Origin: Candidatus Woesearchaeota archaeon | GTDB taxonomy: Archaea; Nanobdellota; Nanobdellia; Woesearchaeales; UBA583 | Reading direction: 5' to 3' | DNA length: 64,000 bases | NCBI GenBank assembly: GCA_965205335.1 | Contig: OZ242164.1 | Coordinates: forward strand, 256,001-320,000 | Part shown: positions 56,888 to 62,235 of the stretch, piece by piece | Position numbering within the stretch: position 1 is the first letter of the stretch | Layout of the letters: the number at the start of each line of letters is the position of its first letter | Made by a program: the position numbers and the translations under genes | Notes under the pieces: generated by a model | Told to the model about the DNA's origin: nothing | The model's database searches: none | What the model saw: only the letters and a program-made list of their open reading frames with translations

Positions 56888-57892
56888 ATGGTAAATAATA
56901 ATTCAGGTCATGAACTTGTGGAATTTAAATTTGATGACTTTGTACGTAAACTTGAACCTTCTGATATTGAGCCATATGTGAGACGCCAATATATAAGAAG
57001 ATTACTCAATTTAATCAAAGGAAAAAAAGGAAAAAATTTAGAGGCTTTAATAAAAGATTCTGAAGAACAATTAAATTATTGTTTAGAATACGTCCAATCA
57101 TTCTTTAGATTAATAGACAAGCAAGGTTATTGCAAAGTTTGGCACACTAAAAAAGATGGACAAGTCACAAATGAGGTTATAATAGGGTTAGAAGAGCCTT
57201 GGAAAATAGAAACCTTTGAATTAACGAGAACCTTTGAGAGTAAGGAAAGTAACGGTAAGAAATTAATTTATCTTCCTGTGAGTAAAGATGGAGTTGATTT
57301 TAATTTGATAATTTACAGACACCATCCGGTTAATTATAATGACTATCCAAGCATTGATGCCTATCCGAACACCCAAATTGAAGTACTATATAATTTTGAA
57401 ACAAGCTTTAGTATAGGGAGAAGAGAGGAGAATCATATATTAAATCAGCTTGCAAGTAATCCTCTAATAAATAAACTTGCAAGTAACCCTCTAATAAATA
57501 AACTTGCAAGTAACCCTCTAATAAATAAACTTGCAAGTAACCCTCTATTAACTAAACTTGCAAGTGACCCTCTATTAACTAAACTTGCAAATAACCCTTT
57601 ATCAACTAATTATAAATTCTTTAATTTGGACAGTTTCTACGGTGAGGAAGGAGAACATATATATTATAGAAATTCAGATACATTTTGTCGTGACCTTTGT
57701 GAGGCTATGCCTAAAACTACTGGAATACTGGAATCATTTCGAGAGGAACTCACCAAATATGGAAATATTAATTCATCAAATATCTCATCAAGATTCAGAA
57801 TGACGGGGGCGATATGTTTTACAGGAACAGAAGAGCCTGTATACTGCGGAAGAATAGGAACAGACGGAACTTTTCCCTTCTTTATCATATAA
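56888..57892 (+). CDS. Hypothetical protein with an internal 9-aa tandem repeat
   Basis: 334-aa ORF; (LASNPLINK)-like unit present 6 times; family not recognised. Confidence 0.6.
   Translation: MVNNNSGHELVEFKFDDFVRKLEPSDIEPYVRRQYIRRLLNLIKGKKGKNLEALIKDSEEQLNYCLEYVQSFFRLIDKQGYCKVWHTKKDGQVTNEVIIGLEEPWKIETFELTRTFESKESNGKKLIYLPVSKDGVDFNLIIYRHHPVNYNDYPSIDAYPNTQIEVLYNFETSFSIGRREENHILNQLASNPLINKLASNPLINKLASNPLINKLASNPLLTKLASDPLLTKLANNPLSTNYKFFNLDSFYGEEGEHIYYRNSDTFCRDLCEAMPKTTGILESFREELTKYGNINSSNISSRFRMTGAICFTGTEEPVYCGRIGTDGTFPFFII
57449..57610 (+). repeat. 27-bp in-frame tandem repeat x6 (VNTR)
   Basis: CTTGCAAGTAACCCTCTAATAAATAAA units, diverging toward the 3' end; no spacers. Confidence 0.9.
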
Positions 57893-57916: not shown

Positions 57917-60115
57917 TTATTTCGTAAAAAAATTATCCAGACTCTTCTGCTTTTCAATTTCCTTTCCAAAAACTCCTTCTATTCTTAAATTCGCAAGTTC
58001 CAATGTCTCAACAATATACGGATCTACCTCATAATTTTTCACAATATCAAAACTTGGATTTAAATACTTTTTAATTGAACCTTCATGTATTGTAAAATTA
58101 ATTGATGTAGCCTTACATTCTGGACATCTCCCATTCAAAGGAGGTCTTCTGCAGATAAAATTACAATTAGTGCACCTAAAAGACTGCATTGAGAACTTTC
58201 TTAAATTACCTTTAATATCTCTCATAAAATGCTTATCAATAATCAAAGAACCTAATTTATTCTCATTAACCGCACGGATTTTAGTTCCTATTTCCAATTG
58301 CATATTCATTTTATCCACCATAAGAGGAACTAACTTATATGATGAACATAGAACAGTATTATTCAAATCATCTGTTGAATGAGTGAAATTATAACCTAAA
58401 TACTTATCATCTATAACTTCTTCATTTATTCTTTTCTCAATTCTTTCAATATCAAAATCTCTTGGATTTCTATACCCCTTAGCGCCCTGATAAAGTTCTA
58501 ATGGATAAAAACCAACAATATCCATTCCATGAACCTCATCATCAATCTGATCTAAATGCAAATGAGATGTCAGAACCAAAGAAATATCCATAGTCCTTGC
58601 CCCCAACCTGTCAGGCAAATACTCCACTGAAAAATTTATTAATCCATCCATTAAAAGCATTATCCCATTCTCGTCCCCATCAAGATTTCTTCTCTGGGCG
58701 GCATGCCATACTGGATGAGAAAAACACCCCTGAGTCTTTGAAAAACCAATTATTCTCCCAATAATCCCTGCAGAAGTATGAGGAGCAAGCCCTATTACCA
58801 AATGCCCAATAGTATCCTCTCTCGTTTTGAAATTATAAAATCTGGGAAGTTTGTATAGACTTTCAAGCAACTCATCTATGAAATTAGCCGTATTCATTAT
58901 AAACTCCGATGCTAACTCATCCCCACTCTCAGCACAGTCAGGAAGAATCACATCCTGTGGGAGAATTTCAATTAACTGATTCTCATCTTTTAATGGATTG
59001 CCAAGATAATCTTTCTCATAACCAAGTTCCTTTAATTTTTCAATAGACGTTCCGATTTCCTTTGGTTTAAAATGAGTTATTCCCATTTCAATCATATCAA
59101 ACCTGACAGTTCCATCCTTATTAACATATACATTATTTTTAGCCCTTAGAAAAACTTTTGCAATATGCTCAGTAATATGATTTCTGTTAGAAGTTCCCTT
59201 AATCCCTTTCACTAACTTTGGCAACTGAACAGAATTAATTATCTCTCTTGCTTTATCCACATACCTAGAAACCTCAAGTTCAATCTTCTTATATCTAACA
59301 GCTTTCTTATTATCAGAATTCACCTGCTTATTTGTCCATTTCTCAAAATATCTCTCCTCAGTTTTATTAGAACATTCTTCACATTTAGGATAAATAGTCT
59401 CCCTGTCACACTCTGAGCAATAATATATCACAAACAGAGATGAAACCTTTCCTTTCTTTGAATACGCTTCCATTAAATTCCTTAACCTTCCTCCTTCCTC
59501 TCCTACTGGAAACAAGCCATGCGGTCTTCCTGTAAGTTTACGTATCTTAGCCTTCTCAGGTCTTCCCATCCTTGCTCCAATATAAGTTCCTCCCTTATCT
59601 CTTATCTCTATTTCATTTGAAAGTGTTAATATCTCACAGGATTTTTTCTCTAAATTCTTCTTTGCAGTCTCAAGCAAATTATCTAACCGATTTTTCAAAT
59701 CAAACTTCTTAAAATCATAAATTCCTAAATTAGATAAAATAATCTTTGTATTCAGTTCATCAAATTCAAGTACATTCACTTCATCCTCTGATTTCACTTT
59801 ATCTAATGGAAGAGACTTAACGCTATGTTCAATTCCCAAAATCTCACAATATCTCTTTATCTTATCAATTACAGGAAGAGTTGATTTTTGTGCATTCTCT
59901 TCAACATTTAACTTCTTTAAATACTCCAAAAACAAAACCAATTGATTAGCTGTTAATTCATTCCAGTACAAAGTATATCTGGGATGTAGAGCAATTTTAT
60001 ATTCTTTTGACAATGAAATAGCCTCTTCAATTTCAGGAATATTCATAAAGGGATTTTCAAGTATATTTTTTATCTCAGGACTTGGGCTCTTTACTAAATT
60101 TAAATATGTATTCAC
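57917..60115 (-). CDS. polC: DNA polymerase D large subunit DP2, C-terminal part only (732 aa)
   Basis: LHPRYT, IGARMGRPEKAK, KDGTVRFD, LAPHTSAG, RRNLDGDE catalytic motif, DIKGNLRKFSMQSFRC and C-terminal PIP box QKSLDNFF; the N-terminal portion is absent. Confidence 0.92.
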   Translation of the reverse strand: MNTYLNLVKSPSPEIKNILENPFMNIPEIEEAISLSKEYKIALHPRYTLYWNELTANQLVLFLEYLKKLNVEENAQKSTLPVIDKIKRYCEILGIEHSVKSLPLDKVKSEDEVNVLEFDELNTKIILSNLGIYDFKKFDLKNRLDNLLETAKKNLEKKSCEILTLSNEIEIRDKGGTYIGARMGRPEKAKIRKLTGRPHGLFPVGEEGGRLRNLMEAYSKKGKVSSLFVIYYCSECDRETIYPKCEECSNKTEERYFEKWTNKQVNSDNKKAVRYKKIELEVSRYVDKAREIINSVQLPKLVKGIKGTSNRNHITEHIAKVFLRAKNNVYVNKDGTVRFDMIEMGITHFKPKEIGTSIEKLKELGYEKDYLGNPLKDENQLIEILPQDVILPDCAESGDELASEFIMNTANFIDELLESLYKLPRFYNFKTREDTIGHLVIGLAPHTSAGIIGRIIGFSKTQGCFSHPVWHAAQRRNLDGDENGIMLLMDGLINFSVEYLPDRLGARTMDISLVLTSHLHLDQIDDEVHGMDIVGFYPLELYQGAKGYRNPRDFDIERIEKRINEEVIDDKYLGYNFTHSTDDLNNTVLCSSYKLVPLMVDKMNMQLEIGTKIRAVNENKLGSLIIDKHFMRDIKGNLRKFSMQSFRCTNCNFICRRPPLNGRCPECKATSINFTIHEGSIKKYLNPSFDIVKNYEVDPYIVETLELANLRIEGVFGKEIEKQKSLDNFFTK

Positions 60116-60117
60116 TT

Positions 60118-60357
60118 TTAACTCACTCCATACTCCTTTGATAAAAGCAAATTCAGATATTCCTTTACCAGAACTTCTAAAGAATAATCATCATTTATCT
60201 TCTCAATCTTTAACACAACATATTTGCCAACATCTGTAATTGATGCCTTAAAAAAATCCTTGTAATCCTTAATTGTATCTAAAATAAATTCCTTTGTATA
60301 AAATAACTTATTTAAATATACAAACGCAAAATCATCTTTGAGAACAATTTTCTTCAT
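60118..60357 (-). CDS. HxsD-like small protein
   Basis: 79 aa; LNKLFY.KE.I...IKDY...C-terminal EYLNLLL pattern resembles His-Xaa-Ser system HxsD. Confidence 0.55.
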   Translation of the reverse strand: MKKIVLKDDFAFVYLNKLFYTKEFILDTIKDYKDFFKASITDVGKYVVLKIEKINDDYSLEVLVKEYLNLLLSKEYGVS

Positions 60358-60572: not shown

Positions 60573-61733
60573 ATGGAAAATAAGGTGGGAATAGAAATTG
60601 TTCCCAAAATTTTTAACTTTATTTTAGATTCATCAGGATACAAAAAAGAGGATATTATAGAATCAAAAACACTTAAAAAAGAGGATTTGAATGGAATTCT
60701 TAATGGAACATATAAAATCTCATTTCCTAAACTCAAAGAATTAGACAACAAGTTCTTTAAAAGAGGAATTCCTTTTTATTTCTTGGATGAAGTCCCTAAA
60801 GAAACTGCTTCTCTAAGTTTTAGAAAAAACAAAGAAATTGCTCCGAACGAAAAAATAACGTTAAGAAAATATGAAATACTAAGAGATGATGTAAAAGAAT
60901 TAAGTGAGGATTTAAGTGTCAATTATGAGAGAATAGATGAATTTTATAGTATCATAGATAAGACAGAAGAAGTTGCTGAAAAATATAGAAATATCTTCAA
61001 TTATGATAATTTAAATTTGGAAGAAAAAAATGAATCTGAAATATTTGAATTTTTAAGAACTAAAATTGAAAAAAGGAATGTTTTTGTTTTCAGATTAGAT
61101 TTTTACAAATATAAAAAAGTAAATTTTAGTGGTTGTGTTTTTCTAAGCGATAATATGCCAAAATTAATTTTAGTAAATTCAGAAGAGGACAAAAATAGAA
61201 TAATTTTTACCCTACTTCATGAGTTTGCACACTATCTACTAAATAAAGAAGAAGAAACCAAAAAATTAAATTTTAACGATAACAATAAAATAGAAAGATG
61301 GTGTAACAATTTTGCCTCTTATTTTCTTTTTCTAAAAGAGAAAAGAGAGGACATAATAAAGAATTTTAATAAAGATACTTATTTAGAAATTAATTCTAAA
61401 GAATTAAAAAATATATCTAAAAAATACAAGATTAGTAAATTTCACTTTGTTCATATTTTAAGGAATTTAAATTTAATAAGCAATAATGATTTAGATGAGT
61501 TTGAAGCAAGATATGATGATGAAATTGAAAAGTTAAGAGGAAGAAAAGGAGGAAGAGGTGATGAAAATACATATTCTAGAAATAGATTAATAATCGATAG
61601 TAGGATGTACTTAGGCTTAGTTTATCACAATTACAAAAATAAGAATATCTCTTATGGAGAGACTTTAAATTATTTATCTGTTAAAGAAAAAGATGATATG
61701 GTGAAAATATTCGAGGCAATTGAAAATGAATAA
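60573..61733 (+). CDS. ImmA/IrrE-family metallopeptidase with a probable N-terminal HTH
   Basis: RIIFTLLHEFAH (HExxH) and E.WCNNFA..FL motifs. Confidence 0.88.
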   Translation: MENKVGIEIVPKIFNFILDSSGYKKEDIIESKTLKKEDLNGILNGTYKISFPKLKELDNKFFKRGIPFYFLDEVPKETASLSFRKNKEIAPNEKITLRKYEILRDDVKELSEDLSVNYERIDEFYSIIDKTEEVAEKYRNIFNYDNLNLEEKNESEIFEFLRTKIEKRNVFVFRLDFYKYKKVNFSGCVFLSDNMPKLILVNSEEDKNRIIFTLLHEFAHYLLNKEEETKKLNFNDNNKIERWCNNFASYFLFLKEKREDIIKNFNKDTYLEINSKELKNISKKYKISKFHFVHILRNLNLISNNDLDEFEARYDDEIEKLRGRKGGRGDENTYSRNRLIIDSRMYLGLVYHNYKNKNISYGETLNYLSVKEKDDMVKIFEAIENE

Positions 61734-62235
61734 GTATTTAATGGACATGAGCACTTTAAAAGATATTAAAGATAATCTTTCTCTCATTGAAGGAATCTGG
61801 GAGTTTATCAATAAACTATATGAAGAAGGAAAAATTATTTTAATAAAAGAATTAGAAGAAGAAATTAAAAAAGGCGATGATAAGGATTTTCTTAAAAAAG
61901 AATTTATTAAAGATAAAAAAATTATTGATGAAAAGAAAACCCAAGATTTTATAGATAGTTATAAGGAAGTAGTTAGTAATTTGCCAGAAGATATTACTGA
62001 GAATTCTATTAAGATAGAGAAACTTGAAAAGGGATGCGATTTTTACTTAGTAGTTTATGCTTACTTCTACAGATTTAAAAGAAATGAGAGAAATGTTTTT
62101 ATCTTAACAAACGAAAGAAAAAAGGGAAACCAACTTAAAATTCCTTATATTGCAGAATTTAGTGGTTGTGAGTGTGTGGACTTCACCCAATTTTTAGAAA
62201 AAGAAGAAAAAAAGGTTAAACTGGTTGATTTATAA
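61726..62235 (+). CDS. DUF4411-like PIN-fold protein
   Basis: KYLMD, EE.KK, D..LV..A, LTNE and KIP..A...GCEC motifs; overlaps the IrrE-like gene, its usual partner. Confidence 0.75.
   Translation: MNKYLMDMSTLKDIKDNLSLIEGIWEFINKLYEEGKIILIKELEEEIKKGDDKDFLKKEFIKDKKIIDEKKTQDFIDSYKEVVSNLPEDITENSIKIEKLEKGCDFYLVVYAYFYRFKRNERNVFILTNERKKGNQLKIPYIAEFSGCECVDFTQFLEKEEKKVKLVDL

Follow-up and report, generated by a model that had tools for sequence, protein, structure and literature searches.

The DP2 gene is divided into two separate genes

In a Candidatus Woesearchaeota archaeon (assembly GCA_965205335.1), DP2, the large subunit of DNA polymerase D (PolD), is encoded by two separate genes that lie about 110 kb apart on opposite strands. 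The gene for the C-terminal half lies in a stretch of 64,000 nucleotides, positions 256,001 to 320,000 of contig OZ242164.1 (hereafter the window), and the gene for the N-terminal half lies elsewhere in the same genome. DP2 is the catalytic subunit of the replicase in most archaea; to our knowledge, no other DNA polymerase shares with RNA polymerases their two-barrel core. We consider it highly probable that the two genes represent a real, fixed gene fission leading to a two-chain DP2 in one family of DPANN archaea of the Woesearchaeales type. We observed directly that the gene is divided, where exactly the cut falls, that it is conserved, that both parts are under purifying selection and that intein parts are absent; the sequences suggest that the halves are translated separately, assemble non-covalently and are active.

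The gene in the window (57917–60115, minus strand) encodes 732 aa from a GTG start and was identified by its open reading frame (ORF) and by profile and Pfam matches. Its product represents the C-terminal 60% of DP2. It matched positions 449–1125 of the 1125 positions of NCBIfam model NF003103 (DNA polymerase II large subunit) with 738.6 bits, the cut-off being 1269, and in Pfam it aligned with positions 156–368 of 372 of PolC_DP2_central and with the complete PolC_DP2_cat domain (6–299 of 299). It contains the remainder of the central domain, followed by the catalytic domain and its DGD motif (D479-G480-D481), the zinc modules (with cysteines C648, C651, C664 and C667), the DP1-binding C-terminal domain and a PCNA-interacting protein (PIP) box. 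The last of these is the C-terminus QKSLDNFF, which fits the PIP pattern Qxx[LIM]xx[FY][FY].

Upstream, the DP2 frame is closed by two consecutive in-frame TGA stops (60188–60193, minus strand), 24 codons before the GTG. These 24 codons bear no likeness to DP2, which speaks against a reading of TGA as a sense codon, and they overlap in another frame with the preceding gene. That gene (60118–60357, minus strand) encodes a 79-aa HxsD-like protein, which scored 43.9 bits against NCBIfam HxsD_rel, barely over the cut-off of 41; its stop codon, TAA at 60120–60118, is followed by 2 nt and then by the GTG. Inside its 3′ end a Shine–Dalgarno-like sequence, GGAGTGAG (60122–60129, minus strand), lies 6 nt before the GTG and is a putative ribosome-binding site. 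A preliminary description of the window had proposed a DP2 ORF of 732 aa starting with GTG 2 nt after the stop of an HxsD-like gene, closed by a TGA about 24 codons upstream, with no DP2 N-terminal sequence in the window and with the catalytic DGD, C-terminal zinc finger and PIP box intact and no sign of decay; our analysis agreed with it on each of these features.

The genome (G000) consists of one contig of 1,199,749 bases and is rated 95% complete. A six-frame search with NF003103 returned exactly two DP2 matches in the whole genome, the one inside the window (738.2 bits in this search) and another outside it, at C1:426073–427476 on the plus strand (model positions 4–447, 547.3 bits). A full-length polC elsewhere, which the preliminary description had named as the observation that would speak against a split, was not found by this search in the one-contig genome. 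The second match is a clean ORF of 465 aa (C1:426073–427470, plus strand; L002:1501–2898), whose product aligned in Pfam with positions 2–269 of 271 of PolC_DP2_N and 1–155 of 372 of the central domain. It ends in ...GYCEEEWALELIDKLNKKQ (also given as ...NGYCEEEWALELIDKLNKKQ) followed by the stop codon, 13 residues past an EEEW motif, and corresponds to the stand-alone N-terminal ORF ending shortly after EEWW that had been predicted.

The three DP2 domains are present in order only when both ORFs are taken together. Neither half reached the curated equivalog cut-off (1269 bits in a single protein) alone, while their summed bit scores (547.3 + 738.2 = 1285.5) exceeded it. All copies with an NCBI name, 8/8 N-halves and 6/6 C-halves, are called 'hypothetical protein'; therefore, with neither half at the annotation cut-off, automated surveys may score the lineage as lacking PolD.

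The same break is fixed throughout one family

As the preliminary description had proposed, we surveyed the sister genomes, namely the 19 other species of the same GTDB genus, which make up the rest of the GTDB family in the genome collection. The same split was present in all of them (19/19), the pieces being apart at the same model position; 18 species had both pieces and one, G003 (71% complete), only the C-half. A match over the cut-off was found in 0/20 genomes of the family. Where both pieces were located on one contig, they were 13 kb (G002), 164 kb (G019) and 518 kb (G007) apart.

Among 42 loci retrieved with the N-half from species-representative genomes, 15 (65–76% identity) carried a stop 9–17 residues after CEEEW, 22 (51–59% identity) contained a single continuous frame of 1124–1194 aa, four left the locus in longer frames and one was truncated by its contig. 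At the other end of the break, the C-half frame was closed upstream, with an ATG at the aligned place, in 17/17 loci from relatives. In a collection of 5.8 billion proteins, stand-alone N-halves formed 84 clusters (58–93% identity) and C-halves without the N domain formed 67 clusters (53–94% identity), and the further matches past both sets were full-length proteins of at most 50% identity. Three deeper N-halves (58–60% identity) had the same end point. In a tree of the N part, from which the four run-off loci and the truncated L006, L014 and L040 were left out, the 14 split sequences formed one clan with a support of 100 in the Shimodaira–Hasegawa-like approximate likelihood ratio test (SH-aLRT), so that a single change of state is enough to explain them; in the midpoint-rooted tree this clan was nested among full-length sequences.

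The wider distribution was evaluated in two samples. The order sample comprised 251 genomes at least 80% complete, 241 of them with the central domain; outside the family, 20 genomes gave two matches, and inspection of all 20 revealed 11 contig ends, one run of N, one frameshift, five in-frame insertions and two second copies. The phylum sample comprised 301 genomes at least 90% complete, of which 296 had a match and 260 had one frame over the cut-off. Each of the low-scoring phylum genomes that were checked could be explained by the end of a contig, by an insert that keeps the frame or by an insert of intein size at model position 875/876. Eleven two-match phylum genomes with best E-values of 1e-286 to 1e-303 (G331, G365, G088, G197, G430, G286, G336, G339, G352, G395 and G432) were judged by their scores, which fit the intein pattern. 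No clean split was found elsewhere among the 251 order and 301 phylum genomes, these 11 high-scoring two-match genomes not having been individually inspected. The tallies include the unpublished G124, G187, G207, G209 and G211 (order) and G211 and G398 (phylum), each with one full-length frame, and omitting them changes nothing.

Several apparent splits were rejected. Those in G021, G032, G084, G115, G120, G123, G128, G129, G139, G161, G183, G188, G227, G313, G324, G330, G356 and G386 were contig ends; G356 and G330 had seemed to carry the same split as the family, but in both the N piece continues across the junction and meets no stop codon before its contig ends. The apparent split in G141 was a run of N at the junction, that in G225 a frameshift inside the GARMGRPEKAK motif, and those in G070 and G243 were second copies. 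In-frame inserts or inteins accounted for G051, G095, G103, G136, G137, G184, G186, G271, G275, G280, G300, G322 and G423.

Some irregularities of DP2 genes were recorded alongside the survey. The frameshift in G225 (G225:C37:5327–5328, L073), which belongs to another family, reflects an error in sequencing or else a lesion of recent date. In G199, of another family and 100% complete, the DP2 frame (G199:C4:102846–105665) has 949 aa and lacks model positions 690–953, about 264 positions that are replaced by about 35 residues; the gap would take out the catalytic barrel, and the congener G126 has a full-length gene. Within the split clade, one subclade (G004, G015, G006 and G008; L059 and L061) has a C-half longer by about 70–90 aa (frames of 809–817 aa), with the insert near C-half residue 270, in the variable zinc module region. 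Several records of metagenome-assembled genomes (MAGs) with a split DP2 (L004, L008, L009, L013 and others) are titled 'uncultured Methanosarcinales archaeon' or 'Bdellovibrionales bacterium', labels that do not fit their gene content.

Both halves are under purifying selection

Both halves were open in every species. In the closest pairs, the ratio of non-synonymous to synonymous substitution rates (dN/dS, Nei–Gojobori) was 0.10–0.14 for the N-half and 0.15–0.19 for the C-half, most pairs being near silent-site saturation, and the proportion of non-synonymous differences was lower than that of synonymous differences (pN < pS) in 91/91 N-half pairs and 120/120 C-half pairs. Both halves are under purifying selection. 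A KH-like motif, GPxRAAGxT (G150, P151, R153, A154, A155, G156 and T158), and the basic motif of the first double-psi β-barrel (DPBB-1), GGxRLRYGRxR (G338, G339, R341, L342, R343, Y344, G345, R346 and R348), were invariant in 74 N-halves. In 63 C-halves, the connecting-loop motif GxRMGRPEKxK (G180, R182, M183, G184, R185, P186, E187, K188 and K190), the segment QRRNLDGDE (Q474–E482) including the catalytic DGD, and the cysteines 648, 651, 664 and 667 were likewise invariant. A KH-like PIRxxGGT motif is named in the text of PMC6355029, and the DGD of the C-half aligns with the region of Pyrococcus abyssi DP2 that holds D956 and D958 in the account given in PMC4996933.

The small subunit DP1 is also encoded in the genome (PF04042 match at G000:C1:1032210–1032863, in an open frame of 607 aa), as is PolB (open frame of 769 aa). 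A divided gene in such a genome might be an artefact of misassembly, or a polymerase gene on its way to loss after a takeover by PolB; besides the PolB gene, the low depth at the locus (2–5) and the occurrence of broken DP2 genes in MAGs (the frameshift in G225 and many contig-end breaks) would fit this. Misassembly or decay would, however, have to account for the same break point in 20/20 species from independent assemblies and in 84 + 67 protein clusters, for open frames with dN/dS of 0.10–0.19 and invariant catalytic motifs, and for contigs that bridge position 60115 without a joint. Because the break is conserved in 20 species and the selection test applies to both halves, we regard an artefact or decay as very unlikely; the selection on both halves argues that PolD is in use despite the presence of PolB. 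The bridging contigs are Logan contigs from three runs of one sample, at a depth of 2–5; they span 60115, where the preliminary description had considered an assembly break, and are probably from the source sample of the assembly. None of the records listed as containing this stretch is an RNA record.

The cut falls in a variable linker within the central domain, with no trace of an intein

The Pfam DP2 central domain is cut exactly between positions 155 and 156. To compare the junction, we aligned 22 full-length relatives and fitted 14 N-halves and 16 C-halves into this alignment, each as a fragment of its own. Around the junction the full-length relatives read ...GYCEEWWxLExEKAxVxxFG-xLDFxKLxxL...KNPxxxK...IPLHPxYTYHW. 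The N-halves end within the EKAxVxxFG stretch, and the first residues of the C-halves (MDFNKL in relatives, MNTYLNL in this genome) align on xLDFxKL; no residues were lost or duplicated at the cut in this alignment as compared with the full-length relatives. The junction stretch varies in length among the full-length proteins, with deletions in L035, L036, L039, L042 and L043. AlphaFold2 models of the single halves contained a helix at N-half residues 450–463 and short helices at C-half residues 13–20 and 29–39. As judged by the alignment and these models, the cut is in a loop between predicted helices, in a linker of variable length, as the preliminary description had supposed in placing it in a variable linker without an intein at the new N-terminus.

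Inteins that are split have halves of about 100 and 35 aa, and intein ends carry a conserved Cys, Ser or Thr and His-Asn. The N-half extends only about 10 residues past the part aligned with full-length DP2 and the C-half is aligned from about its first residues, leaving no space for intein halves; no unaligned extension is long enough to hold them, only DP2 domains and no intein domain were found in both halves in Pfam, and neither the Cys, Ser or Thr nor the His-Asn typical of intein ends occurs at the junction. Because there is no extra sequence at the junction, it is exceedingly improbable that the halves are joined by split-intein protein trans-splicing, although inteins are known in DP2 (cluster P0127 among the C-halves, 1198 aa, has intein and LAGLIDADG domains), inserts of intein size are present at model position 875/876 in several relatives, and the PolB of Nanoarchaeum equitans offers a precedent for such joining in the account of PMC4104785. 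The inserts at 875/876 occur in G275, G300, G271 and G423, of the same class and other orders, in frames of 1407–1693 aa, and this position is the catalytic-loop intein site described from Thermococcales in the text of PMC4996933.

Joining could also take place between messages, by trans-splicing of two RNAs and translation as one chain, as split tRNA halves are joined as RNA in Nanoarchaeota according to the text of PMC3491384. Against this, the N-half has its own stop in 15/15 loci and the C-half its own start in 18/18, often overlapping the stop of the upstream gene, and the longest complement between the 3′ part of the N-half and the 5′ part of the C-half is 9 nt, a length reached in 104/300 shuffles and so not above chance. 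We therefore hold RNA-level joining to be very improbable.

In terms of the P. abyssi protein, N-half residues 3–461 align with DP2 residues 5–471 and C-half residues 15–717 with 504–1191, which places the cut at about residues 476–503. Sauguet et al. (2016; PMC4996933) describe a central domain at 308–667 and a catalytic domain at 668–996. Since the cut falls within 308–667, it is inside the central domain, the carrier of DPBB-1, and not between the two barrels. In the topology given in the same text, DPBB-1 is spread over the central domain (β7–9, a missing strand in 376–392, β13, and β18 just before residue 654), which also contains a seven-stranded sheet (β10–12 and β14–17). This topology and the predicted contacts suggest that the N-half supplies the early DPBB-1 strands together with the conserved basic motif, whereas the C-half supplies the last strand, which precedes the GARMGRPEKAK connecting loop. 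DPBB-1 and the adjoining sheet would accordingly be assembled from both chains.

The two halves can be modelled together as a normal DP2

We co-folded N-half residues 1–465 with C-half residues 1–530. The mark for a positive result had been calibrated on solved complexes, 58/80 of which reach it, and on mismatched pairs, 2/110 of which do so; this calibration holds only roughly here, as we used alignments of our own. The pair passed the mark, with ipSAE values of 0.81, 0.85 and 0.88 (median 0.85) as compared with 0.00 for the best of three controls, a difference that may stem from likeness to solved single-chain DP2. The runs agreed in at least 84% of contacts, with a partner pLDDT (predicted local distance difference test) of at least 83 and 392–410 contacts. 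The contacts formed two blocks, one for each of the intramolecular interfaces known from the single chain. In the first, N-half residues 4–55 were in contact with C-half residues 417–524, which corresponds to the interface between N-terminal extension and catalytic domain known from P. abyssi. In the second, N-half residues 327–342, 373–379, 401–406 and 444–464 were in contact with C-half residues 4–53, 90–99 and 172–186, completing the central domain. A co-fold of the halves had been suggested in the preliminary description, and the outcome was favourable to it within the limit just given. Because single-chain DP2 structures are already solved, the result speaks for likeness and not for binding: the model indicates that the two chains can be arranged as a normal DP2. 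When the halves were folded alone, N-half segments 304–336, 346–352 and 436–453 and C-half segments 180–193, 434–484 and 507–529 were poorly ordered, and these segments largely match the predicted interface; some of them are disordered also in the single-chain crystal, as far as PMC4996933 describes it.

The sequence of events that we favour begins with one ancient fission of the DP2 gene in a surface linker of the central domain. Of the two products, DP2-N (465 aa) has the N-terminal domain, in which the KH-like motif lies, and the beginning of the central domain, probably with most DPBB-1 strands. DP2-C (732 aa) has what remains of the central domain, the second barrel (DPBB-2) with the DGD, the zinc modules, the C-terminal domain that binds DP1, and the PIP box. 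Both would be translated alone, DP2-N to its own stop and DP2-C from its own start, and in most members DP2-C, just behind the HxsD-like gene, probably shares its promoter and ribosomes. The two chains may then assemble non-covalently into a DP2 of normal shape and, with DP1, into a three-chain PolD.

Several points weigh against this reading of the split. PolB is present, so that PolD need not be the sole replicase. The co-fold may have passed the mark through memory of the solved single-chain DP2 structures (5IJL, 6HMS, 6T8H and 6KNB). The C-half here starts with GTG, as compared with ATG in 17/17 relatives, and the reads that bridge 60115 come from one sample, which is probably the source of the assembly, so that they give no independent support.

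The only rival reading with some weight is that the halves are functionally independent, for example with DP2-C acting together with DP1 and proliferating cell nuclear antigen (PCNA) alone and DP2-N having another role. DP2-C alone holds the DGD, the zinc modules, the DP1 dock and the PIP box, and the genes lie 13–518 kb apart with different neighbours, so that co-regulation is not enforced by position. In DP2-N, however, the KH-like motif and the basic motif of DPBB-1 are invariant, and according to PMC6355029 and PMC4996933 these motifs line the active site of the PolD structures solved so far; both halves co-occur in every reasonably complete genome that has one of them (18/19); and the residues predicted to be in contact are those poorly ordered in the halves folded alone (N-half 304–336 and 436–453; C-half 180–193, 434–484 and 507–529). 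On this evidence independent halves are unlikely. A two-chain DP2 might also be put to regulatory use, and we mention, as a speculation with a rather small chance of being correct, an obligate three-chain PolD in which the first barrel and adjoining sheet are complete only on docking of DP2-N and DP2-C. The unlinked genes would let the cell gate the polymerase through the supply of one half, DP2-C, DP1 and PCNA would form a waiting inactive scaffold, and the co-translated HxsD-like protein would aid assembly in most members. If true, such a gated enzyme would offer a living model of the ancestral scission that has been suggested for multisubunit RNA polymerases.

Comparison with other split enzymes

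The two-chain DP2 has the same domain order and motifs as the canonical single-chain DP2 of P. abyssi and Thermococcus kodakarensis (5IJL, 6HMS, 6T8H and 6KNB), and it keeps the KH-like motif, DPBB-1 basic motif, connecting loop, DGD, zinc cysteines and PIP-like end; it differs in that two genes, separated by about 110 kb, take the place of a single gene of 1150–1270 codons. Split informational genes have been reported in Nanoarchaeota and other DPANN archaea, namely those for reverse gyrase, tRNA synthetases (alanyl-tRNA synthetase), topoisomerase I, PolB and Dph1/2 (text of PMC6349945). As in N. equitans and the DPANN cases described there, the halves of an essential information-processing enzyme are distant and separately translated, and the condition is derived and lineage-specific in a genome-reduced archaeon. 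In contrast to those cases, known from one or a few genomes, the gene is a different one and the DP2 split is fixed across a whole family (at least 20 species). With this finding, replicative polymerase D joins the informational genes that are divided in DPANN archaea, and the split provides a clean marker for one family.

Family B polymerases of Methanobacteriales and N. equitans likewise have the catalytic subunit of a replicative DNA polymerase in two pieces, as described in PMC4104785. Their fold is that of family B, in contrast to the two-barrel fold of family D in the split DP2. In that source, N. equitans PolB is rejoined by an intein and the split of Methanobacteriales PolB is ascribed to intein excision at an intein site, whereas the split DP2 is without an intein and is not cut at the known DP2 intein site in the catalytic loop, model position 875/876.

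Raia et al. (2019; PMC6355029) proposed a single-chain ancestor for multisubunit RNA polymerases, from which their two-barrel core would have arisen by scission. As in the RNA polymerase pairs β/Rpb2 and β′/Rpb1, the two-DPBB core of the split DP2 would come from two chains, and the chain with most of DPBB-1 (equivalent to DPBB-B) precedes the chain with the DGD barrel DPBB-2 (equivalent to DPBB-A). In contrast to the RNA polymerase division, the DP2 cut lies in an insertion within the first barrel and not between the barrels, the last DPBB-1 strand probably being in the C-half, and the event is independent, recent and in a DNA polymerase. The fixed and selected split means that a two-barrel core tolerates a cut inside its first barrel, and the lineage shows such a core surviving scission, though with the cut within that barrel. 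The split DP2 offers a ready-made two-piece system for assembly and structural work and for testing the scission idea put forward for the RNA polymerase core in PMC6355029. No description of a split DP2 was found by full-text literature searches aimed at it or in the main texts of PMC3914693, PMC4104785, PMC7544198, PMC6349945, PMC8407392 and PMC12680538, which comprise Raymann 2014, Makarova 2014, Kazlauskas 2020, Dombrowski 2019, a DPANN comparison of 2021 and a study of the Asgard replisome of 2025; supplementary tables (e.g. of Raymann 2014 and Kazlauskas 2020) might flag it. As far as sequence comparison and these texts indicate, this is a known enzyme and a known sort of event, with a gene and a site of splitting not described before.

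Gene neighbourhoods and origin of the fission

In 13/17 loci from relatives, an HxsD-like ORF of about 78–90 aa precedes the C-half, its end ranging from an overlap of 14 nt with the C-half start to a gap of 45 nt before it. In the remaining loci, a 301-aa gene lies 44–121 nt upstream in three, all of one subclade, and nothing recognizable precedes the C-half in one; one further C-half locus was excluded from this count, the contig ending inside the gene. Co-transcription of the C-half with the upstream gene is a reasonable inference from this arrangement, and the HxsD-like gene probably supplies a promoter and translational coupling for the C-half. HxsD_rel was absent from G005, G014 and G019 (90–92% complete), all of which have the split, and was found away from DP2 in 5/21 genomes of other families; none was present within the 3-kb flanks of full-length DP2 genes. 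The split genomes without HxsD_rel and its occurrence away from DP2 speak against the HxsD-like protein as a required partner, and a functional tie of this protein to DP2 is unlikely.

G002 has both halves on one strand, with the N-half gene 13 kb upstream of that for the C-half. The intervening genes encode an oxidoreductase, MCM, aEF-2, an HD protein and an OB+DHH protein, and no integrase or transposase domains were found in the 13 kb between the halves. With only housekeeping genes between the G002 halves, an origin by insertion of a mobile element is not supported. Because this interval is free of mobile-element genes, the fission looks like a rearrangement with its break in the linker.

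In the genome under study, the N-half is preceded by an ORF resembling ATP-dependent DNA ligase, labelled from the look of its translation, and by a gene for a DUF357 protein (at L002:1047–1346, minus strand, and L002:2–1060, plus strand). Downstream, on the other strand, lies an ORF resembling a class I aminoacyl-tRNA synthetase, again labelled from the look of its translation, which recurs in 3/15 loci of the split clade.

Two other features flank the DP2-C region of the window. A 334-aa ORF at 56888–57892 (plus strand), convergent with the C-half, contains about six tandem units of nine residues (NKLASNPLI / TKLASDPLL) and had no Pfam match. At 60573–62235 (plus strand), two genes overlapping by 14 nt encode an M78/ImmA-IrrE-type peptidase (386 aa, PF06114) and a DUF4411 protein (171 aa, PF14367); this pair, beside that of the HxsD-like gene and DP2-C, looks like a toxin–antitoxin-like or defence-type module.

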